Below are positions 7,565-62,802 of a DNA stretch of 64,000 nt, piece by piece (positions within the stretch are counted from its first letter, which is position 1; every line of letters starts with the position of its first letter). This DNA is from Eledone cirrhosa. Lineage: Eukaryota. Under the pieces are notes generated by a model, which was given only the letters and a program-made list of their open reading frames with translations, did not search any database and had not been told where the DNA came from. Location of the stretch: positions 340,628,001 to 340,692,000 of the forward strand of contig OZ024742.1 in the NCBI GenBank assembly GCA_964016885.1. The letters run 5' to 3'. The translations under genes and the position numbers were made by a program.

Positions 7565-7860
7565 ATGCCAAGCTGAAAGGGTATTGAAAGACACTGTTTT
7601 CTGTTATATAAAAACTACATAATAGTACCACTGATGATGTCACAGATGTGTGACGAAAGAACTTTGATAGATTATATATATATATTTATATCTGTATTTT
7701 TAACCGGTGGTTGATCAATGGTAAACATTGTTTGCCAAATAAATTAACTATGAAGATATAAAGGATACAGAAGCGAAAACCAACCCAAACAAAACAGTGA
7801 GTGTGTTTTATATATTTCTGGCAATATTATAACAATATGACCCTCCCCAAATATAACAAT
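7565..7860 (+). mobile_element. Diverged PLE 3' end with hammerhead core at 7631-7658, flanked by (TA)n
   Basis: CTGATGA-T-GTCACA[gatg]TGTGAC-GAAA-GAAC-TT-TGA; ends ATGACCCTCCCCAAATATAACAAT as at 31877-31900. Confidence 0.75.
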
Positions 7861-8093: not shown

Positions 8094-8099
<6 letters not shown>

Positions 8100-8360
8100 T
8101 AACAGATTAAAGTTTAAGCAAAGAATCGCTGCTTTCACCCTTAACGGGATCTTCTGAAACTAAAAAAAATTATTTTTAGTTTCAGAAGATCCCGTTAAGG
8201 GTGAAATCAGCGACTCTTTGCTTAAACTTTAATCTGTTCTTGATGAAGGACTAGCGTCCGAAACGTTAAAACCCTCTCCCTGCTATATCAAGCGTGAACT
8301 GAATATATCCTTTCCCTATACTGTACCGATTGTGTTGTTATTTCTGTTTACCTTTTACAT
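8094..8360. mobile_element. Palindromic PLE-type end between (TA)n tracts
   Basis: Arms ~8101-8166 and ~8174-8238 are inverted repeats. The right arm continues into TTGATGA-A-GGAC[tagc]GTCC-GAAA-CGTT, a hammerhead-like motif. The left arm recurs at 37844-37918 and 40290-40362. Confidence 0.75.
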
Positions 8361-8566
8361 ACATATATATATATATATATATATGAAATACGTTCCTTCA
8401 CGCACAAGGCGCCAAGGTACGCATGACCTACCTCCTTTTGCCTCTATCTTTGCTACGGCCCTTGATAAACCTGTTCTACATCATCCACTCTCATCCCAGG
8501 AACAGTTTTTGATAGTGCTAGTTTGTGATTTAAATTCAGGAATTTTATATTCTTTGAATGAAAAGA

Positions 8567-8650
8567 ACCTTCTGACGAGAATCTTTCTTTGCAACGAAGG
8601 CCGTATGGTCTCCGTTTTATTTTTGGGATTCGAAACCGATCGGTAAAGGT
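8567..8650 (+). ncRNA. Type I hammerhead ribozyme, long stem-II loop
   Basis: ACCTT-CTGACGA-GAATCTT[~39 nt]GGGATTC-GAAA-CCGATCGG-TA-AAGGT: intact core, 5-bp stem I, palindromic stem III and a GUA cleavage triplet. Confidence 0.8.
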
Positions 8651-9529
8651 AACTATAGTAGGTAAAGTCAATTTTTTTAAATTTATTTTGAAACTTTTTC
8701 ATTATTTACTAAACCTTGTTTATATATATATATATATATAGTTCCAGTTCAATGGAATAGCTTGCCCGTGAAGTTAATATGTAAGCAGCTAAGTATTCCT
8801 GTGACACGTGTGTATATAACGTAAGCCTCAGATACATTCAGCGTGGCAGAGTGTGTGATGAATCTGGCCTTTTGAATTACAGCTACAGTCCATCTGACAG
8901 ACTTGGATTTACATAATTTAACACACGGGGCTTGGGTCAACCCGTGACTATCGTAACTGACATTTGCCGGCCCAGCCATGCTGTGAGATCAAGCTTAGAA
9001 CCTCAAAATTGCCAAACGTACTTAACTATTCAGTCCTACTGTGTCCATAATCGAGTTGCACGATGTTTTTCGTTCAGTAAATATTATTTTCCCGGCTTTA
9101 GTATATTTTTTCACGTTCCATGAATTAAATATATTTATATGTACTATTATTTACCTAACTGTTTATCTGACCTATCGTGTCTCGGGATTATTCAATGTTC
9201 CATGAATTAAATATTCTGACACCCGTTTACCTGCTGATAGATAATCCATTCAGTCAATCTCTTATTTTTTGACACTTTTACTCAATAATATATCCAGTGT
9301 TTACCCTTGTAGCAGTCATGCTCAACACAACACCGGTGTTGGTTTACATCAACACAACAGATGTTTCGGGCCACAAACAGTCAAAATATTACGTGACTCA
9401 TTTTTCGTAGAAAAAGAAAAAAACAAACAAAGTGTATTGAATATCGAACCTGATCCGTTGCAGACGAGAAATGGCCAAAATAAACGCTATGAATATTATT
9501 TTTATTATTATTATTGTTATTATTATAAT

Positions 9530-14779: not shown

Positions 14780-17700
14780 ACGGCCGTATTAAGAGTAGGA
14801 TGTTTAAATGTTCGAGGTCTTGGATCGTCCTGGAAGCAGGGTCACCTGCTCAACGACCTCAGGTCTATAGAAATGGATGTAATTGCCGTCAGCGAGACCA
14901 GGATTTCCGACACGCGCGCACTAGCACCCATTTTCGACGACTATCAGATCTTTGCATCTGTCAGCCGGCCGGGAATGGGGGGCAGGGTGGGAGTGCTGTT
15001 TAGGAAAGGCCTGGAACTCGAGGTAAGGTCGATCTTCCGGGACCCGGACGGGAAGTTGGTGGTCCTGGACGTGAACAATAACGAAGGTGGTGCCTTTAGA
15101 CTGGTGGCCGTCTATGATCCTACTGGGGCAGGATGGCCGGACTTCTTTAGACGCCTGGAAGCCTTTCTGGGTACGTCTCACCCTTTACTGTTAGCGGGGT
15201 ACTGGAACGGCATCTTAGACGCACGCTGGGACTGTGTGGGAGTATCCGATAGGAGAGGGGGTGCAAAAGCCTCAAGAACCTGATCAGCCAGTTCCAACTG
15301 TCTGACAGGTACCGACTAGATTTCCCTAATGCCCCTGTGTGGACCTGGGCTAACCGCATAGGGTCATCTAGATCATATATAGACAGGATATTCATTAGGA
15401 AAATAGACAGAAATAGTGTAACCTGTACACGTTTTGAAACGGTCGCCTATTCACATCACAAGTTTGGGATCTGTATGGTCGACCTAGATAAGACGCGTAG
15501 GTTAGGACATGGTTACTGGAAGCTAAACATGTCATTTCCGGCACGTAAGGCTTACAGGGACCAGGTCAACAATTTAGTTAAGAAAAAGTTGACAGGAGGA
15601 GTCGTCAACAATAGATGGTGGAGGGGGGGGGGGGCTATGAAAAGAGAGATTAGAGTAATGTCGATAGAGTTTAGCAAAGAAGTAGCATTAGAGAAAAATA
15701 GAAAGGAGGGGGAGTTGGTAGATAAGTTAGACGAGGCTATTGGTAGTGGCATTGCAACTGATGTGCTAGCGGCGAAAATGGCATTAGACCATTTCTTCAA
15801 TGCGAAACACGAAGGTTGTATTGTCAGAGCTAAAGCGCGTGCTCTGAGAAACGAGGGAACCAAAGCTGTTCGATGGGCCCGCGTGGCAGAGGCGCAGCGT
15901 GGTAATAAAACAACCATTCCGTCTTTGACGGACCGAGACGGGCACGAGCTGAGCGATTCCAAGAGGATGTGTGAGGCCTTTCGCCAACATTTTGCTCAGT
16001 TGTTCGGGGGAAGTGGCGGGTCAGAGATAGTGGCGGACTTCAGTCCCTACCTCGATGGCTTGCCGCAACTCTAGACGGCTGACTCTGGGCGCTGCGAAAG
16101 GCCAATTACTTCAGCCGAGATTCAGGATGCCCTTGTCGGCTGCATGAGGCGCAAGTCACCCGGTTTGGATGGTCTGCCCTACGAGCTTTACGTAAATATG
16201 CCAGACTTGTTCTCCATCTCCTCGAAGCACTCTACTGCAACTGGCAGCAAAACGCGAGTATTCCCAGTTCTGTGAGCCGGGGCGTAGTGACGCTGAAAAG
16301 GAAAGACGAGAACAAGAGGGACACATTAGACAATTTCAGGCCCATAACTCTGCTCAACACAGAGTTTAAGATTTTGGCCAGGGTGTTAGCAAAGAGGGTG
16401 GCGCTTGTCGTCGGGATTTGGTTGGGGAGGCGCAAACTTGAGCAATCCCAACCAGGTCGATACACGACAACCTCCACCCAATGCGATACATCATAGAGAG
16501 GGTAGGGTGTAAACCTCGCTTCGGTGGGGCTCTGATCAATTTAGATCAATCGAAAGCATTCGATAGGGTCGACCATCGGTACCTGGAGGCTGTCCTCAAG
16601 GCGGCTGGCTTCGGCCCCGTCTTCAGAAGTTGGATCGCTGCAATGCACAGCGGTACCTGCTCGATGGTCAAAATTAATGGTCACCTCTCGGAATCGTTTC
16701 AGGTCTCCCGATCGGTCCGTCAAGGGTTCCCTCTCTCCTCCCTTATGTACGTATTGACTCTCGAGCCTTTACTGCGGAAGCTGGAGCTGTTGCAGGGCAT
16801 CCCGCTCGAACCGGGACGTGGAAAGTCTGTGTCGGCTTATGCGGACGACATCACCGTGATGGTGTCGGACACCTCAGATATCGAGGTGGTCGGCAACTTA
16901 TTGGAGGAATATGAAAGGTTGACGGGAGCAAAACTTAACCCGGAAAAGTCGGTGGGCTTGCAACTCGGCACCTGGAGAGGCAAGTCCATGCCGTCCAACA
17001 GCGTCGTTAGGCGCTGGACGGACGGACCGGTAAAGTTGCTAGGGGTTTGGTTCGGGCCAGACCTCCAGGTGGATAAGAATTGGGACGAGGTGACGGGCAG
17101 GGTAGCCAATCTCACCCAGAAATGGGCTGGGATGAAGCTATCACTGAAAGGTCAGGCGGAGGTGGCGAACGCATACATCGCGTCCGTCATCTACTACCGT
17201 CTGACCGTCATCCCTTGCTCCCGTTCGCGCCTCGAGGGGTCAGGTTCCGCTGGTGACGCGGTCCATCTGCTGCCAGCACCCTCTACGTGGAGGGCTGGAC
17301 ATGCCGTGGCTAATGATGCGCAGGTACGTGCTGAGGCTGCGGCATCTCCAGATATTCTGCCTAAACGGTGAACAGGTGTGGTCGCCGTTTGTCAGACGGG
17401 CCTTTCCGCAGCTCGTTTCTTTGACTGAGCTGCAGTCCTGGGTCAAGAAGAGACCGAGACTGGGTGACTGGCATCTGGAATGTTGCCGGGCACTCACTGC
17501 CCTCTACCAGGCGGGCAATGCGGTCAGTAGAACTTCCACTCTCGAGTTCTATAGAGGATTAGCGGTGGGCAAGTGCGACGAGGCACTCGGAGAGGCCCTG
17601 GGCGTCGACGAAGTCGAACTAGCCAGTCTGTACCGGAGGACTTTCGAGCCGGGGACGATGGATAATTTCCAAAAATCCCTCGCTTGGCAGTGCTACCGGG

Positions 17701-18183
17701 GGGCACTGCCGGTTCGAGATAAACTCTACAGGCACGGAAGTGCTGTTAGACGGACCTTCCCGAGATGCGCGCACAGCGACGAAACCGTTCTGCACGCACT
17801 CGTCCAGTGTCCGTGCATTACTGACTTGTGGAGTTATGTTGAACAGCTGTTGTCGCGTGTAGAACGGATCCGGCTATCGGCCGAGTCCATAGTGAAGATC
17901 GACCCGTCGCCTTCTTTTGGCCAGGAAGGGCAGGCAGTTGTCCTCTGTCTGGTGGCAGTAGCGAAAGAGGTTGTATGGTGGACGAGGTTGAAAGGACTGA
18001 AGACAGAGACTTTTCTCTTCGGTCAATCCCTCATCAACTTTTTCAAATTTCACTTGGAAAGGAAGGTAAGGGTGGAGAGGGAAATGGTGCCCCCCCCCCC
18101 CCTCCAGTACATTTGCTGAAAGGTGGGTGAATGTGGCGAGAATGACCCGTGTGAGTGGGCCTACTCTGGTCATGCGGCTGTAG
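14780..18183 (+). pseudogene. Tx1 copy A ORF2 (APE endonuclease + RT), multiple frameshifts and stops
   Basis: Pieces 14873-15283, 15337-16074, 16272-16496, 16481-17371 and 17253-18119 align in order to ORF 20817-24236 (VSETR, DNFRPITLLN, DQSKAFDRV, YADD). Confidence 0.92.
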
Positions 18184-19352: not shown

Positions 19353-20697
19353 GGTGGAAAGAGCCACAGAGGCCCAAATACAAAAAGCCTTGGGGTCTGT
19401 GTGGCAGCGGAAAACGCACATCACCCGAGGCAAAAAATATGCCACCGTAGACGTACTTTTTGCCACACCCCAGGAGGCAAAGGCCCAATCAGTAGTGACC
19501 CTAAGGAGCGAGGAAATGGTGTTGGTGCCCTCCTACTGCGGGCAAAAAATTGTGAGGGTCAAACTGACCCACGTCCCCCCCGGAATGACCCCTTCTTGGC
19601 TGGCCGCGTCTGTCCTCGTCGGAATCGAGGACAAAACAACTGTACTGCAAGTACAGAAAAAAGTAAGAGAAGATTGGGTCGGCTCCTCCATTGAGATGCT
19701 AATCCAAACCAACCAGGAGTGCATCGAAGCTATCCCGGATGTGATAGACTTCGATAACGGCACTCAACTGCCCATAAGTGTTGAGGGCAAACGCCCGAAA
19801 TGCTTTCGCTGTGGATCGAAGACTCACCTCAGGGCCTTCTGCAACGAGAAGACCCTGAGAAAGGAGAAAACCCCCCTCCTTCCGAATCCGGCTCCACGGC
19901 TACCAGCAACAGGACAAGCGGCAACCAGGAACGATAGGTCCGTGGCACCCATACCCACTCCACGGAAATCAAAAACAGCAGCAGCAGTGGAAATATTAAC
20001 AACAACAACAGCAATACCAAATGCAGCTGCGACAGAGACTCCAGTGCAAACATCACCAACAACAACAAGTGAAAGAGTGGAGCTGGTACCCCTCCCCGAC
20101 CTCACAGAATCAGACATGGAGTGTGAGGTGGGAGAGGGATGGCAAAAGGTCGCAAGAAGGCACAAACGGAGAAGCAGCGCATCGTCGCCTTTGAAAAGGG
20201 AGGAAAGAAATGAGAAAAGGGTAAAGTCTACTGCAAAGAGACCCACAGCAGCAACACCACCAACACCATCACCACCCACACCAGCACCACCATCACCACC
20301 GGCGACAACCCCACCGCCAACAACACCTTCAACACCACCACCACAAGCACCAACATCGCAAACACAACAACAAAACACACACACCCAGCAACAACGACAA
20401 GAAAATAGCAGAACCACACCCCACCCCCAGAAAAACAAATGCACGGCAATAAACACACACAACAAGAAACTAATGACTTACATAATTGAACACACAGACA
20501 TTTCACAACAGGACTACATAATACCAGCACCAATCAAAACGCCAACTAACATAAGACTGCTAAAAATAGCACAGAAACAATACACAAACATTAAAACGAA
20601 ATTCCCCAACGCAGTTGGTGATTTCAGGGACCTAGGAGGAACCATCAATCGAAGAGTATATTCAGACATTCTCTTAGAAGAGCCGACGACCAGCTGA
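19315..20697 (+). CDS. Tx1 copy B ORF1, C-terminal part (gag-like CCHC zinc knuckle, Pro/Thr-rich linker)
   Basis: CFRCGSKTHLRAFC (CX2CX4HX4C); homologous to copy A 13320-13925. Confidence 0.8.
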   Translation: MVTYRTVSTKSRRVERATEAQIQKALGSVWQRKTHITRGKKYATVDVLFATPQEAKAQSVVTLRSEEMVLVPSYCGQKIVRVKLTHVPPGMTPSWLAASVLVGIEDKTTVLQVQKKVREDWVGSSIEMLIQTNQECIEAIPDVIDFDNGTQLPISVEGKRPKCFRCGSKTHLRAFCNEKTLRKEKTPLLPNPAPRLPATGQAATRNDRSVAPIPTPRKSKTAAAVEILTTTTAIPNAAATETPVQTSPTTTSERVELVPLPDLTESDMECEVGEGWQKVARRHKRRSSASSPLKREERNEKRVKSTAKRPTAATPPTPSPPTPAPPSPPATTPPPTTPSTPPPQAPTSQTQQQNTHTQQQRQENSRTTPHPQKNKCTAINTHNKKLMTYIIEHTDISQQDYIIPAPIKTPTNIRLLKIAQKQYTNIKTKFPNAVGDFRDLGGTINRRVYSDILLEEPTTS

Positions 20698-20816
20698 AGG
20701 GACGATTCAACGGTCCCTTCACCAGACGATCAAGTGAAAAGGGATGTAAAAACCATCCCTCCTCTACCAAAAGTACGGTAAGTGGTCTTTCCCATCTTTT
20801 CCACTCTATTTTAAAC

Positions 20817-23800
20817 ATGACCTCACTCAGAATAGGCAGCATAAATGCGCGTGGCTTGGGGTCGTCATGGAAGCAGGGTCACCTGCTCAACGACCTCAGG
20901 TCACTAAACATAGATGTAGTGGCCATCAGCGAGACCAGAATTTCCGAAGCACGGGCCTTCGCACCGATCTTCGGCGGCTACGATGTGTACGCATCTCCCA
21001 GCCGTCCTGGATCGGGTGGAGGAGTTGCTGTGCTTTTTCGGAGAGGTTTGGATCTCGCCATACGGGCCATCTTCCTGGACCCAGAGGGTAATCTGGTGGT
21101 GCTGGACGTGACCAGCGGAGACGGGCAAGATTTCAGGCTAGTGGCCGTCTATGCCCCGACAGGAGCAGGGCGGCCTGATTTCTTCCGGCGTCTGGAGACC
21201 TTTCTTGGAACGTCCCGCTCTTTAGTGTTAGTGGGCGACTGGAACGGGATCTTAGATGCACGCTGGGACTGTGTGGGATTAGCGGATAGGGGTGGAGGGT
21301 GCAAGAGCCTCACCAACCTGCTCAGGCGTTTTGAACTGTCTGACAGGTACCGATTGGATTTCCCGAATGTGCCAATGTGGACTTGGACAAACCGCATAGG
21401 GTCATCCAGATCATATCTAGATAGAGTATTTTGTAGGGAAATAGATAGGTCTAGCATAGGCTGTCCACAATTCAAGATAGTCAGCTACACGGACCACAAA
21501 TTCGTGATCTGTGTGCTTGACTTAGATAGGCTTCATAGACGAGGACCCGGCTACTGGAAGCTAAACGCGTCCTTACCAGCGCGCAAGGCCTACAGAGACC
21601 GGATTAGCGAACTAGTTAAGCGGGCGTTGACGGGGGCCATCGTCAACAACAAGTGGTGGTTTGCTCTGAAAAGAGCGATTAGAATAGAATCGATTAGGTT
21701 TAGTAAGGCTTTAGCAATAGAGAAAAATAGAGCAGAGGGAGAACTAGTTAGAAAATTAGACGAGGCGCTTAGCAAAGGCATTGCGACCGACGTGCTTGCG
21801 GCGAAATTGGCCCTTGACCAATTCTTCAATGCAAAGCACGAAGGCTGCGTTGTCAGAGCTAGGGTGCGTGCTCTCAGACACGAGGGGACGAAAGCCGTTC
21901 AATGGGCCCGAGTGGCGGAGGCGCGTCGTGGCAACAAAGCCACGATCCGGTCTTTGGTGGACCACGACGGGCGCATGCTACTCGATCCCGGGCAAATGTG
22001 TGAAGCTTTTCAGCGACACTTCGCTCAGCTGTTCGGGGGAAGCGGGGGGCCGGGTAGAGGGATGCACTTTAGTGTCTACCTCGACGGACTGCCGCGGCTC
22101 TCGGCCACTGAGGCGAAGTGTTGCGAAAAGCCGATAACAGCCGCTGAAGTACGGGAGGCAATGACTGGCTGCACAAGGGGTAAATCGCCTGGTTTGGATG
22201 GTCTGCCCTATGAACTTTACGTACAGATGCCAGACTTGTTCGGAGGCCTCTTGGCGGACGTCTACTGCAACTGGCAACAGAACGGGAGAATTCCCAGTTC
22301 TGTGAGCCGAGGAGCGGTGGCACTGCTGAGAAAGGATCCGAACAAGGGGGATAACATAGACAATTTCCGGCCCATAACTCTGCTAAACACAGAGTTTAAG
22401 ATTTTGGCCAAGGTGCTAGCAAAGAGGTTGGCGCTTGTCGTTGGTGGTCTGGTGGGAGAGGCGCAGACATGCGCCATTCCCGACAGATCCATCCACGACA
22501 ACCTCCACCTCATGCGATACATCGTAGAGAGGGTAGCTAGGGAACCTGGCACGGGTGGGTCCTTGATCAATTTAGATCAGTCGAAAGCTTTCGATAGGGT
22601 CGACCATCGTTACCTAGCGGCAGTCCTGAGGGCGGCTGGCTTTGGGCCCGTCTTCAGAGGCTGGATCGCTGCCATGCACAGCGACATCTGCTCTGTGGTG
22701 AGAGTGAACGGTCACCTGTCGGAACCGTTCAACATCATGCGCTCGGTCCGCCAAGGATGTCCCCTCTCGTCCCTCTTGTACGTATTGACTCTCGAGCCAT
22801 TACTGCACAAACTGGAGACGTTGAGGGGAGTCCCGCGCGAACTAGGATGCGGAAGATCCGTGTCAGCATATGCGGACGATGTCACCGTAGTGGTGTCGAA
22901 CGCCAAACACATCGAGGCGATCGGCACTACACTAAGAGAATACGAAGCGGTGACAGGAGCAATGATCAACCAGGAAAAGTCAGTGGGCCTGCAGCTCGGC
23001 ACCTGGAGAGGCAGGTCCATGCCGTCCAACAGCGTCGTCGGGCGCTGGACGGACGGACCGGTTAAATTGCTAGGGGTCTGGTTCGGTCCGGACCTCCAGA
23101 CGGACAAAAACTGGGACGAGGTGACGAGCAGGGTGGCTTCTCTCACCCAGAAATGGGCGGAGAGGAAGCTATCCCTGAAAGGTCGAGCGGAGGTGGCTAA
23201 CGCGTACATCGCGTCTGTCATCTGCTACCGCCTAACCGTCGTACCTTGTCCTAAGCCTCGCCTGACTGCGCTGGAGCGTTTGCTCTTTCGCTTTTTGTGG
23301 AAGGGACGTGCTCCGATGGTCAGGCGGTCCATCTGTTGTCAACACTCGCTACGTGGAGGGCTGGGCATGCCGTGGCTGATGATGCGCAGGCACGCGCTCA
23401 GGCTACGACATCTCCACCTCTTCCTCGACGGTGATCAGGTGTGGTCGCCGTTTGCTAGACGCGTTTTTCCCCAGCTCGTTTCCTTGACGGAGCTGGAGTC
23501 CTGGGTCAAGCGAAGACCGAGAGGGAGCGCCTGGAGACTGGAATGTCTTCAGGCGCTCACAGCCCTCGACCAATCGGGCAATGTGATCGGTGGAAACTCC
23601 ACCTCGGCGTTCTATAGAGGATTAGTGGAGGGGAAGAGCGACGACGTACTTGGGGAAACTCTAGGCGTCGACGAAAATCAACTAGCCAATCTCTTCGGAA
23701 GAACTTTCGGGCCAGGGCCTATGGACAACTTCCAGAAATCTCTGGCCTGGCAGTGCTACCGAGGAGCCTTGCCAGTTCGGGATAAACTCTACAGGCATGG

Positions 23801-24236
23801 AGGTGCCGTCAGCCGGGCATGTCCGAGATGCGCGCAGGGCGACGAAACCGTCCTGCACGCACTCGTCCAGTGTCCGAAAATTGCTGACTTGTGGGTTTAT
23901 GTCGAACACCTGCTGTCGCGTTTAGGACGGATCCAGCTATCATCTGAGTCTATCGTGAGGATTGCCCCGCCCTCCTCCTTTAGCCGGGAAGGGCAGGCAG
24001 TTTTTATCTGTCTGGTGGCCATGGCGAAAGAGATAGTATGGTGGACACGTTTGAAAGGGCTGAAGACGAGCACTTACCTCTTCAGTGATGCTCTGATTGA
24101 CTTTTTCAAATTTCATTTGAAAAGGAAAATCAGAGTAGAGAAGGAAGTGCTCTCTTCCCAGCATTTTGTTGAAAGATGGGTGAGAGAAGCAAGAATGGCC
24201 CGAGTGAATGGGCCGACTCTGAGTATATATCTGTAA
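20817..24236 (+). CDS. L1/Tx1 ORF2 polyprotein: APE endonuclease, reverse transcriptase, C-terminal Cys/His motif
   Basis: 1139 aa uninterrupted. EN: NARGL, ISETR, VYAP, GDWN, TDH. RT: SPGLDGLP, FRPITLLN, DQSKAFDRV, VRQGCPLS, YADD. C-terminus: CPRC...ETVLHALVQC. Confidence 0.96.
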   Translation: MTSLRIGSINARGLGSSWKQGHLLNDLRSLNIDVVAISETRISEARAFAPIFGGYDVYASPSRPGSGGGVAVLFRRGLDLAIRAIFLDPEGNLVVLDVTSGDGQDFRLVAVYAPTGAGRPDFFRRLETFLGTSRSLVLVGDWNGILDARWDCVGLADRGGGCKSLTNLLRRFELSDRYRLDFPNVPMWTWTNRIGSSRSYLDRVFCREIDRSSIGCPQFKIVSYTDHKFVICVLDLDRLHRRGPGYWKLNASLPARKAYRDRISELVKRALTGAIVNNKWWFALKRAIRIESIRFSKALAIEKNRAEGELVRKLDEALSKGIATDVLAAKLALDQFFNAKHEGCVVRARVRALRHEGTKAVQWARVAEARRGNKATIRSLVDHDGRMLLDPGQMCEAFQRHFAQLFGGSGGPGRGMHFSVYLDGLPRLSATEAKCCEKPITAAEVREAMTGCTRGKSPGLDGLPYELYVQMPDLFGGLLADVYCNWQQNGRIPSSVSRGAVALLRKDPNKGDNIDNFRPITLLNTEFKILAKVLAKRLALVVGGLVGEAQTCAIPDRSIHDNLHLMRYIVERVAREPGTGGSLINLDQSKAFDRVDHRYLAAVLRAAGFGPVFRGWIAAMHSDICSVVRVNGHLSEPFNIMRSVRQGCPLSSLLYVLTLEPLLHKLETLRGVPRELGCGRSVSAYADDVTVVVSNAKHIEAIGTTLREYEAVTGAMINQEKSVGLQLGTWRGRSMPSNSVVGRWTDGPVKLLGVWFGPDLQTDKNWDEVTSRVASLTQKWAERKLSLKGRAEVANAYIASVICYRLTVVPCPKPRLTALERLLFRFLWKGRAPMVRRSICCQHSLRGGLGMPWLMMRRHALRLRHLHLFLDGDQVWSPFARRVFPQLVSLTELESWVKRRPRGSAWRLECLQALTALDQSGNVIGGNSTSAFYRGLVEGKSDDVLGETLGVDENQLANLFGRTFGPGPMDNFQKSLAWQCYRGALPVRDKLYRHGGAVSRACPRCAQGDETVLHALVQCPKIADLWVYVEHLLSRLGRIQLSSESIVRIAPPSSFSREGQAVFICLVAMAKEIVWWTRLKGLKTSTYLFSDALIDFFKFHLKRKIRVEKEVLSSQHFVERWVREARMARVNGPTLSIYL

Positions 24237-28669: not shown

Positions 28670-30964
28670 TTAATTGTAAGTTGTGATGTTGCTGTTCCAC
28701 TCATATTTTCTATTTAATTTTGGTTGTAATTCTTTTATGTTTATTGCCTCTGTAATTTGTCTAAATATTGCGTCTTTTCTGTGTGTAGATTCTATTTTTA
28801 TTTCTATGTTCTCTAATTTACCCTTGTATTCTATTTTAGCATGTTGGTAGAGTACAGATGATTCTTTACTATCTTGAAGGTCTCGCCAGTGTTCATTTAT
28901 CCGTTCCCCTATACTACGAGCTGTCTCACCTATGTACACTATATTTTTGTCTCTACATTGTCCTTCAGTACATCTTATGCTATACACTACATTTCTAGTT
29001 TTACAGTTAATATGGGGGCTTATTTTACAGGTTATACATTTTTTATCTATACATGAGGGTCTTTGAAAAGGGTATGTCTTGCTAATAAGTGTTTTTACGG
29101 AGGTACCTGGTCTTTCTACTATCTTAATATTGAGTTTATGTTTATATAGGGCCCTTCTAAATTTGTAAGCTAGTTCACCTCTAGCGGTTGTATCGATGAA
29201 CATTACACTCTGGTATTTATTGCTATCATACCATGAGTTTATTCTATTAGCCTTGTTCCTAGTTCTTTCTATTCTATTCCAAAATTTGCTCCTATACAAG
29301 GGGCAGGTCCCATTTATTTCATTATTTACCATTTTTTCCCATTTGGTTCTGGCTCCTCTATACACTCTGATTTTATCTCTCTGATTGTAGCCAGAGAACT
29401 GCATACGGTGGATGAAGTATTGTATGTCTCTCTCTAGTTCTTCGGGGTTGCACATGCGGGACACGTTTCTCATCACCCGTACCAAATCCGCAATCAGTAT
29501 GTTGATTTTGGTATGGTCCGAAACGGCCGAGTTTCGGTGGATCAGGTGTTTGGAAGTCATGGGTTTGGCATAATGGGAATGGAGGATTTGTTTTTTGTTA
29601 TTAATGGTATCTAACCAGAGCTCTGTGTCTAGTACAGGTAATCGATGGTTGGGGTGTTTACTAGGGTAGTCTATAGTAACTCTAATGCTCTGGTGGATGG
29701 AGTTAGCTATTTGCTGGATGCTTTCCATTGTGTTTTTCTCTAGTTCCTGACTGTTCTCTAGTGGGGGTGTCTTAACTACGATGTTTATATCATCAACGTA
29801 GCGGGAGTACATTATCAGGGTTAAGGGGTCTTCTAATTGTTCTTTAAGCTTAAGTTTATGTCTACCGTCCCACCATACCATGAATAAGTTAGCTATGTCG
29901 CCTGCAATGCTAACACCAATGGCTGCTCCTTCCTCTTGGGCATATGTTTTTCCATTAAATTTGAACATATGTTCCTTAAGGGTTAGTTTTATGCTGGCCC
30001 CTACCGCATGTGCAATGATTTTCTTCAGTTCATCGTGGTTTTCGGGTGTCCGTATGGCTCTGGTCCACCCGTTCCATCTATCTGTGTGGGTTTTCTTGGC
30101 CATTGAGGTAATGGTAGGTGGTCTGCCTCTTGCTGGTCTTGTAGGGCACAAGTTGCAAAGGTCATATGTGTCTAGGTAATTATTACTATAGGTAAGTTTA
30201 AGTAGGAGTCCGAGCTCACTGGTATCAATCCCACGGAACTCAACATTGCTCTCACTGATCATTTCTACGCATTTCTCAACAGCAAAACCCACGTCAATAG
30301 ATGGATACAGGGACACAACATCCATACTACCTATTATGCAGTTTGTTAGGTCCCTAGATCGGTTACTCACGCCGATTCTGCTGAGGAGGTCCTCCGTGCT
30401 GTCACATACATCTGGGGACATTTCGATGATGGGGCATATGATCAGGGAGAGGAAGTAGGACAGTCTGTAGTTACTAGCAATGTTAGCTCCACAGACTGGC
30501 CGTGTTGGTGGTCCCGCGACAGGGTCACTGCCCGTTTTATGGTCTTTTCGAAGCCCATACAACGCCGGCACGTCATTGTTCCAGGCCTGGAAGTTGTTGG
30601 CAGTCCTTTTGTTGGGCTGCATTATATTCGTCCACATCACCATATGGGCATTGAGGGCTTTTTCTCTATCCTCATGCTCCTGTGGTGTTACCTCTCTTGT
30701 GTTAGTGATGTGGGGTTGCATTGCCTGGATGTAGTTTGGCAGGCTGTCAACCGACATTCTGCCAGACTTGTCTGTTGGAAAACATGCTATCTCTCCATTA
30801 CGCGAGCGCTGCATGAGCTTACGCAAGCCATTTGCAGATTTTTCTCCCAGTTGCTGGGCCTCCATTCTATTATGCTTCTTGCTATACTGTTCTACAATAT
30901 TTCTAAGTTCGGATCTAGCTATACTAAATTGTGCTTCTGTTTGTTCATCGACCTGCGACGGCAA
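28670..30964 (-). CDS. PLE reverse transcriptase + GIY-YIG endonuclease (probably 5'-truncated)
   Basis: PTDKSG, LYGLRKDHK, PTRPV, SMDVVSLYPSI, QEEGAAIG..IANLFM, RYVDD, LPVLD, Cys-rich linker, NVVYSIRC..YIGETARSIGERINEH. The start is non-ATG and abuts the inversion junction. Confidence 0.92.
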   Translation of the reverse strand: MPSQVDEQTEAQFSIARSELRNIVEQYSKKHNRMEAQQLGEKSANGLRKLMQRSRNGEIACFPTDKSGRMSVDSLPNYIQAMQPHITNTREVTPQEHEDREKALNAHMVMWTNIMQPNKRTANNFQAWNNDVPALYGLRKDHKTGSDPVAGPPTRPVCGANIASNYRLSYFLSLIICPIIEMSPDVCDSTEDLLSRIGVSNRSRDLTNCIIGSMDVVSLYPSIDVGFAVEKCVEMISESNVEFRGIDTSELGLLLKLTYSNNYLDTYDLCNLCPTRPARGRPPTITSMAKKTHTDRWNGWTRAIRTPENHDELKKIIAHAVGASIKLTLKEHMFKFNGKTYAQEEGAAIGVSIAGDIANLFMVWWDGRHKLKLKEQLEDPLTLIMYSRYVDDINIVVKTPPLENSQELEKNTMESIQQIANSIHQSIRVTIDYPSKHPNHRLPVLDTELWLDTINNKKQILHSHYAKPMTSKHLIHRNSAVSDHTKINILIADLVRVMRNVSRMCNPEELERDIQYFIHRMQFSGYNQRDKIRVYRGARTKWEKMVNNEINGTCPLYRSKFWNRIERTRNKANRINSWYDSNKYQSVMFIDTTARGELAYKFRRALYKHKLNIKIVERPGTSVKTLISKTYPFQRPSCIDKKCITCKISPHINCKTRNVVYSIRCTEGQCRDKNIVYIGETARSIGERINEHWRDLQDSKESSVLYQHAKIEYKGKLENIEIKIESTHRKDAIFRQITEAINIKELQPKLNRKYEWNSNITTYN

Positions 30965-31059
30965 TTGCGTGCGTTTGTTAAATGGTAAAGTCGTGGCGTG
31001 GACTTTTTACGGAGGTACCTGGTCTTTCTACTATCTTAATATTGAGTTTATGTTTAGCA

Positions 31060-31706: not shown

Positions 31707-31749
31707 GTTACTGAAGAGGTCACAGAGTGTGTGACGAAAGAACTATGAC
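31707..31749 (+). ncRNA. Minimal hammerhead ribozyme in the right PLE arm
   Basis: GTTA-CTGAAGA-G-GTCACA[gagtg]TGTGAC-GAAA-GAAC-TA-TGAC. Confidence 0.7.
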
Positions 31750-62181: not shown

Positions 62182-62239
<58 letters not shown>

Positions 62240-62312
62240 AAATCAAGGAAGAGCAAATAAAGAAAAAAATTTAAAATAAATTTCAAAACAATTCACTGTA
62301 CTTACTATATGT

Positions 62313-62394
62313 GCCTTTACCGCGGTTTCAGATCCCAAAACAAATAGATAATCCAAGCGGGTTTTCATTGAGAAAGAGATCCTCGTCAGAAGGC
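62313..62394 (-). ncRNA. Type I hammerhead ribozyme, homolog of 8567-8650
   Basis: Minus strand: GCCTT-CTGACGA-GGATCTC[~38 nt]GGGATCT-GAAA-CCGCGG-TA-AAGGC. The ~80 nt from here to (TA)n resemble 8651-8720. Confidence 0.8.
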
Positions 62395-62802
62395 TGTTCT
62401 CTCTCGGAGAATATAAGATTTCCGAGTTCAAAATACAAACTGGCGCCATAGAAAACTGCCCCAACAAATGAATGATGAAACAATTTTGTCTAGTACCGTG
62501 TGCAAAGACTGAAAGCAAGGTGGACAGGTCAATCTCTCGCTACTAAAAATAGCAGCCGTTCAAATGACCAAAGGTTTCTCTACCGTTAGGGAGAATAATA
62601 ATAAAAGTATGTGTTCCTATATGTAAATAATACTCACATATATATATATATATATATTTGTATATAACTTACTGTGATTACAAAAACCATCTTTCTTAAT
62701 ATATTTCTTATACTTAATCTCCGTCGTAACTATACACTACAAATATAGAGAGCTTTCTCCTACTTACTCCTTTTTTTTACGAAAACAACTTTATTACTGA
62801 AC

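Follow-up and report, generated by a model that had tools for sequence, protein, structure and literature searches.

The two hammerhead ribozyme motifs found in the window (the whole analysed stretch of 64,000 nt from the genome of Eledone cirrhosa) probably belong to a non-coding, (TA)n-inserting retrozyme with ~3,000 intact-core copies, which is likely copied in trans by a Penelope-like element (PLE) and is predicted to cut itself with the aid of a pseudoknot. The class of element is known; its stem II, extended and pseudoknotted according to our structural model, is predicted to be a new structural variant.

Both motifs had been noticed in an initial annotation made from the sequence alone and were re-found at the same coordinates, with their cores, three helices and palindromes. 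Copy 1 (8567..8650, + strand) is composed of stem I (ACCUU 8567–8571 / AAGGU 8646–8650), the core segments CUGACGA (8572–8578), GAAA (8632–8635) and GUA (8643–8645), a basal stem II (GAAUCUU 8579–8585 / GGGAUUC 8625–8631, with 39 nt between the strands) and a palindromic stem III (8635–8644), all on the + strand, with the cut predicted between 8645 and 8646. Copy 2 (62313..62394, − strand; predicted cut between 62318 and 62317) has GCCUU/AAGGC as stem I and GGAUCUC/GGGAUCU as stem II, and the core spacer is 53 nt in both copies. With CUGANGA, GAAA and a NUH triplet placed around three helices and the structure open at helix I, both motifs are type I hammerheads. The structural census of the window (core plus three helices) returned these two motifs together with two short-stem matches, and nothing in the reversed window.

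The 39 nt between the strands of stem II had been described as a long, variable loop, equal in length and different in sequence between the copies. The equal length was confirmed by the shared spacer; the sequences turned out to be alignable homologues with structure of their own, and what was taken for a loop is instead an extended helix with a predicted pseudoknot. In copy 1 this extended stem II (8579..8631, +) consists of the 7-bp basal stem, an internal loop (8586–8592 and 8617–8624) and a distal hairpin (8593–8616); in copy 2 the distal hairpin is weakened by substitutions, relative to its subfamily. Across 32 variants, selected via the core pattern to span subfamilies, 91.3% of the cells in the structure of basal stem II plus distal hairpin were paired (22–58% in slid controls), and 10 of 26 pairs were changed on both sides, two of these double changes being located in the distal hairpin. 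The covariation score was reached by 0 of 500 shuffles, a control which is inflated by the kinship of the variants and is therefore lenient. This covariation, which was observed for both helix I and helix II, upholds the earlier proposal of a selected structure with compensatory changes in its stems. An outer extension of stem I was also considered and rejected, as it did not covary.

The same layout was found in a second, retrozyme-like group of elements (L131–L160) with units of 650–710 bp, ends ~300 and ~410 nt after the cut, and a basal stem followed by an internal loop of ~6–7 nt per side and a distal helix. RNAalifold recovered only the basal stem II in this group, and per-sequence folding was used because the gapped alignment limited RNAalifold. 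The inner insert alone folded better than its shuffles in 28 of the 32 variants and in 16 of 17 sequences of the second group. When 30 loci were picked by a motif in the tail of the element and not by the core, a hammerhead region was present in 13 (spacers of 48–59 nt), with 11 cores intact, while 12 loci were truncated before the hammerhead and 5 gave no match.

In our model, the 5' strand of the internal loop in stem II is likely to pair with the bases just 5' of stem I, which would hold both stems parallel. For copy 1 the predicted partner of 8586–8592 is a purine strand at 8560..8566 (+; 6/7 pairs, based on complementarity and covariation), and for copy 2 the predicted pseudoknot strand is situated at 62395..62401 (−; 5/7 pairs). 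The two strands form on average 6.0 of 7 Watson-Crick pairs in the 32 variants, compared to 5.4 with swapped partners (the observed value being reached in 0 of 5,000 cases) and 1.9–3.75 when slid, in windows that were set after inspection of the sequences and for strands that are of low complexity. One position switches from A-U (19 variants) to G-C (12 variants), which may reflect one change that separates two clades and is accompanied by a one-base register shift. Between the peripheral strands of the two stems, at least four covarying pairs were counted, with windows chosen post hoc and a small number of independent changes. The second group pairs via different sequences (4.4 bp with its own partner vs. 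2.6–2.7 across groups), compared with 2.9 for base-shuffled (0 of 2,000) and 4.0 for partner-shuffled controls (185 of 5,000, i.e., modest support), and the pseudoknot is predicted from these matching sequences of its own together with the complementarity in the 32 variants. In nine families, pairing amounted to 5.4 bp with the own partner vs. 3.8 bp with another one, and for five distant families the observed pairing total was reached by 1 of 120 permutations; the best pairing was found at a different offset in two distant families. No comparable pseudoknot pairing was evident in the hammerheads of coding PLEs. Pairing of the purine strand within a local hairpin upstream of stem I was dismissed: the C of this hairpin is invariant in 31 of 32 variants, whereas the base facing it varies (A in 20). 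Pseudoknots between stem I and stem II are common in other hammerheads, where they are needed for fast cleavage (PMC3088659), and the one predicted here bears on the question of how a dimer-type hammerhead becomes activated.

In free folding, the hammerhead was not the minimum-energy structure (z −0.86 for copy 1 and +0.09 for copy 2), and forcing it came at a cost of 2.1 and 4.2 kcal/mol, respectively. Stem III was almost unstable as a hairpin (−0.9 and 0.0) and stable as an intermolecular duplex (−16.6 and −14.1); its palindrome is perfect in both copies and compatible with action as a dimer, as had been suggested before. Transcripts of tandem copies would be expected, with good probability, to self-cleave after GUA, mainly as dimers joined via the palindromic stem III; among Xenopus retrozyme dimers, one of nine was reported to cleave in vitro (10.64898/2026.07.22.740005). 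Rfam returned five matches over 8225–8720, none of them a hammerhead, no hammerhead among the 150 matches listed of 278 in the whole window, and no hammerhead match in the loci of the relatives. This silence says little, because a short-stem hammerhead-like motif in one of these loci (L106) was missed too, i.e., the search is insensitive here.

Judged by their sequences, the two copies are independent insertions that differ in age, and not the meaningful pair that the initial annotation had seen in them: they are two among thousands and represent different subfamilies. Copy 1 belongs to subfamily A (unit of 483 bp, 38.9% GC, longest stop-free stretch of 81 codons) and copy 2 to subfamily B (unit of 472–473 bp), the units of both being 68% identical. 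The 3.0-Gb genome contains 1,423 candidate relatives of copy 1 and 2,182 of copy 2, and in the 40 candidates scored per copy the full-length matches were 99–100% and 92–96% identical, respectively. The core pattern with a 48–58-nt spacer had 2,970 matches in the genome vs. 24 for the reversed control. The units are arranged head-to-tail in tandem with one type I hammerhead each, in arrays of up to 8.8 units (L107). An open reading frame (ORF) with reverse transcriptase (RT) and GIY-YIG domains between terminal repeats was absent from the unit, both in the ORF scan and at the loci picked by the tail motif, so the copies are not placed inside a coding PLE but in a non-coding unit repeated head-to-tail.

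Insertion 1 is a head-to-head pair flanked by two TA runs. A (TA)n run at its left end (8363..8384), the target microsatellite, is followed by an inverted piece of the element (8381..8425, −; unit positions 144–188) that ends at a second fixed 3' terminus against the (TA)n, by a forward, 5'-truncated piece of subfamily A (8424..8725, +; 0.63 of the 483-bp unit, 99.3% identical to a unit of a tandem array) that ends at the first fixed terminus (+80), and by the (TA)n run of the 3' junction (8726..8739). Insertion 2 (62233..62636, −) is a single 5'-truncated copy of subfamily B (0.86 of the 472-bp unit, 95% identical to another genomic copy) between two (TA)n runs, of which that at 62185..62233 forms the 3' junction. 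The (TA)n end noted earlier near each copy is hence real, the junction being located 80–84 nt downstream of the cut. In subfamily A (40 loci, after removal of 11 overlapping loci), 56 of 61 pieces terminated at +80 or +188–193 after the cut, 54 of these were scored as TA-flanked, the 5' ends were variable, and both orientations were present in 20 of the 40 loci. Subfamily B had 44 of 49 ends at +80–84 or +191–197, and both orientations in 17 of 29 loci.

By analogy with described elements, two fixed internal 3' ends, 5' truncation, an inverted partner and a microsatellite target are the insertion signature of PLEs, which bears out the link to these elements drawn in the initial annotation. PLE insertions have 5'-truncated inverted partner copies and a tail, and those of the Hydra clade prefer (TA)n as target (PMC8557442), while reverse transcription of the anole PLE Poseidon starts internally, at two sites that define the tail, from nicks in an AT-rich target with both strands being extended (PMC11167929). 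The tail is ~108 nt here vs. 30–40 bp in these PLEs (PMC11167929; PMC8557442), and no protein is encoded here. Since this signature is carried by a non-coding tandem unit, the element is, by every feature testable here, a metazoan non-LTR retrozyme. A PLE enzyme (reverse transcriptase/GIY-YIG endonuclease) would very probably nick both strands of the (TA)n and start copying inside the RNA; copying would begin 80 or ~190 nt after the hammerhead cut. As for the origin of this enzyme, the Hydra clade would be the most likely source, with a probability slightly above even. That the arrays are a satellite amplified at the DNA level, with the hammerhead as a dead relic, is very improbable: decay is seen in single copies (2 of 13 cores are broken, and the distal hairpin of copy 2 in the window is weakened as described), but the copies are dispersed over many chromosomes, have two fixed 3' ends and inverted 5' joints, and retain the core between subfamilies of only 68% identity while the stems covary.

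A hairpin just past the first end is conserved in the tail of both retrozyme groups (4,410 matches vs. 0 in the control) and is likely an enzyme-recognition site. Among the 165 occurrences of the tail motif in the loci read, none led into a PLE ORF: beyond the tail, 87 continued with the own unit again and 62 with (TA)n, and the other 16 had no PLE protein match. These continuations, together with the ORF-less arrays of up to 8.8 units and the (TA)n runs that separate the copies from the inspected PLE fragments near them, speak against the copies being mere fragments of the terminal repeats (pLTRs) of a coding PLE that escaped sampling in its full-length form. We regard such an origin as improbable, even though long-stem-II hammerheads do occur in the terminal repeats of coding PLEs of this genome, the retrozymes of Xenopus have matches in PLE pLTRs (10.64898/2026.07.22.740005), and the loci read amount to a few hundred.

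Among the coding PLEs, a young family (L200–L215) has frames of 819–821 codons in 16 of 16 loci, which had been chosen for long frames, and 96–98% protein identity among 131 scored matches. The hammerhead in its terminal repeats has a stem II of 36 nt and a palindrome as stem III, and the two ends of the element, ~95 nt apart, are positioned at (TA)n in an inverted geometry like that of the retrozyme. The RT motifs and the C-terminal GIY-YIG region agree by eye with published Hydra proteins (PMC8557442); Pfam reported no relevant family for the protein. This family is a candidate driver by geometry only, and it has no detectable sequence in common with the retrozyme unit; a partner PLE sharing the end sequence was found in none of the four or five PLE families sampled. 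An older family (L112–L130), with a C-terminal GIY-YIG domain, a CxxC linker and 3' ends at (TA)n, was rejected as driver, given its degenerate short hammerhead core and lack of homology to the unit, and another PLE family was discarded as it had no hammerhead near the end of its ORF. One locus (L191), considered as a coding element between two long-stem hammerheads, proved to be a separate PLE nested between TA runs.

A second core pattern had 3,290 matches in the genome vs. 46 in the control, partially overlapping with the first set, and a third pattern with an 85–125-nt spacer had 11,589 matches vs. 1. The inserts of 85–125 nt (L216–L245) fold as long rods; stem I reaches ~10 bp in these motifs, stem III is palindromic, and some of the cores directly adjoin the end of a Hydra-like PLE ORF.

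The template of reverse transcription would be either a circle, to which we give an even chance, or else an uncut multimer, because a cut linear unit provides only 80 or ~190 nt and the genomic copies cross the cut site. Units within arrays differ by 0.48% (80 pairs) vs. 2.6% between arrays (1,267 pairs), and this low within-array divergence fits a circle. Behind one fixed end, the longest array comprises 8.8 nearly identical units, and circular RNAs were reported for related animal retrozymes (PMC7229834). Folded as a circle, the 483-bp unit is only mildly stable (z −1.9, 40 shuffles). If the template were instead an uncut linear multimer of the same element, copied by the same driver, the circle would be unnecessary and the ribozyme would merely release or trim the transcripts, an alternative that we entertain as possible though short of an even chance. 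Some arrays contain units with different variants, which fit a multimer or later exchange and would not be given by a single monomer circle: in two arrays (L006 and L014) variants are common to two of three units, and in a third (L022) one unit has four differences, with none of ten checked variant sites located at a CpG in the reference unit. Moreover, the anole PLE works on unprocessed RNA in vitro, where hammerhead mutants had no effect on insertion (PMC11167929). Going further with the circular template, a joint reading can be proposed tentatively, namely that the copies in the genome are records of rolling-circle reverse transcription which a PLE enzyme initiated within the RNA, that hammerheads with a stem II of 35–125 nt, of which this genome has well over ten thousand, go unnoticed by standard descriptors, that the new peripheral architecture of type I marks a large radiation of circular-RNA retroelements parasitic on PLEs, and that PLE clades described as lacking hammerheads (the 'HHR_half_core' cases of Naiad) may hide them.

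Like the element described here, with its non-coding unit of a few hundred bases, known metazoan non-LTR retrozymes (PMC7229834; 10.64898/2026.07.22.740005) are non-coding tandem units with one type I hammerhead each, a GC content <45%, a short palindromic helix III and co-existing PLEs proposed as drivers. The unit size is 472–483 nt here vs. 170–400 nt (PMC7229834) and 51–972 bp (10.64898/2026.07.22.740005), and the extended stem II with its predicted pseudoknot stands in contrast to the canonical loop contacts described for those retrozymes. What we report here are internal ends at fixed positions, insertion into (TA)n and inverted joints, whereas RNA circles were reported for the known retrozymes (PMC7229834); the terms 'microsatellite' and 'target site' are absent from the main text of that study. 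The minimal hammerheads of PLEs (PMC4209133) are likewise characterized by a helix II of 7–8 bp, a helix I of 4–5 bp and a palindromic helix III, action as dimers having been proposed there too, and the basal geometry found here also matches their description in a review (PMC6765202). In contrast to these, helix II is prolonged here by an internal loop and a further hairpin, and the motif is located in an ORF-less unit and not on the flanks of an RT ORF (PMC4209133).

A long helix with an internal loop and an extra hairpin cap is also present in the atypical type III hammerheads of HDV-like RNAs from toad and termite (PMC7936874), as a mirror image: in that type III fold, helix I harbours the internal loop, which pairs with loop II, whereas in the type I fold described here, with its palindromic stem III, helix II harbours it and the predicted partner is the strand 5' of stem I. 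The supplement of PMC8557442 lists Hydra hammerheads with a short stem II, and a long loop 2 is recorded in it only for two Selaginella PLE-X1 motifs marked as deviating; eight Naiad 'half-core' cases, with separations of 35–50 nt, are a further precedent for a long loop 2. No description of a type I hammerhead with an extended, pseudoknotted stem II was found in the literature searched, which comprised few subscription papers.

So far, PLE-driven movement of animal retrozymes has been based on co-occurrence and on the similarity of terminal repeats, and the insertion signature adds direct genomic support for it. The presence of a 99%-identical subfamily and of young intact PLEs in the same genome makes the PLE step testable in vitro. 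The long stem II also implies that thousands of hammerheads in a genome can go unrecorded when a census is based on descriptors.

Other features were observed in the window as well. Short-stem hammerhead-like cores of another repeat family are located at 7631 and 31711 (+), 48176 (−) and 48297 (+), the copies at 48.1–48.3 kb forming an inverted pair. Near the core at 31711, an open frame of 778 codons (28673–31006, −) had no Pfam match and contains a motif like the DKS-G of PLE reverse transcriptases. Within 8095–8268, a near-perfect inverted repeat (about 8118–8221) is present, and after it comes a hammerhead-like motif with U in place of C at the first core position. A non-LTR retrotransposon frame of 1,204 codons (20622–24233, +) encodes endonuclease, RVT_1 and zf-RVT domains, and a broken copy similar to it is situated upstream (15253–18100, +).
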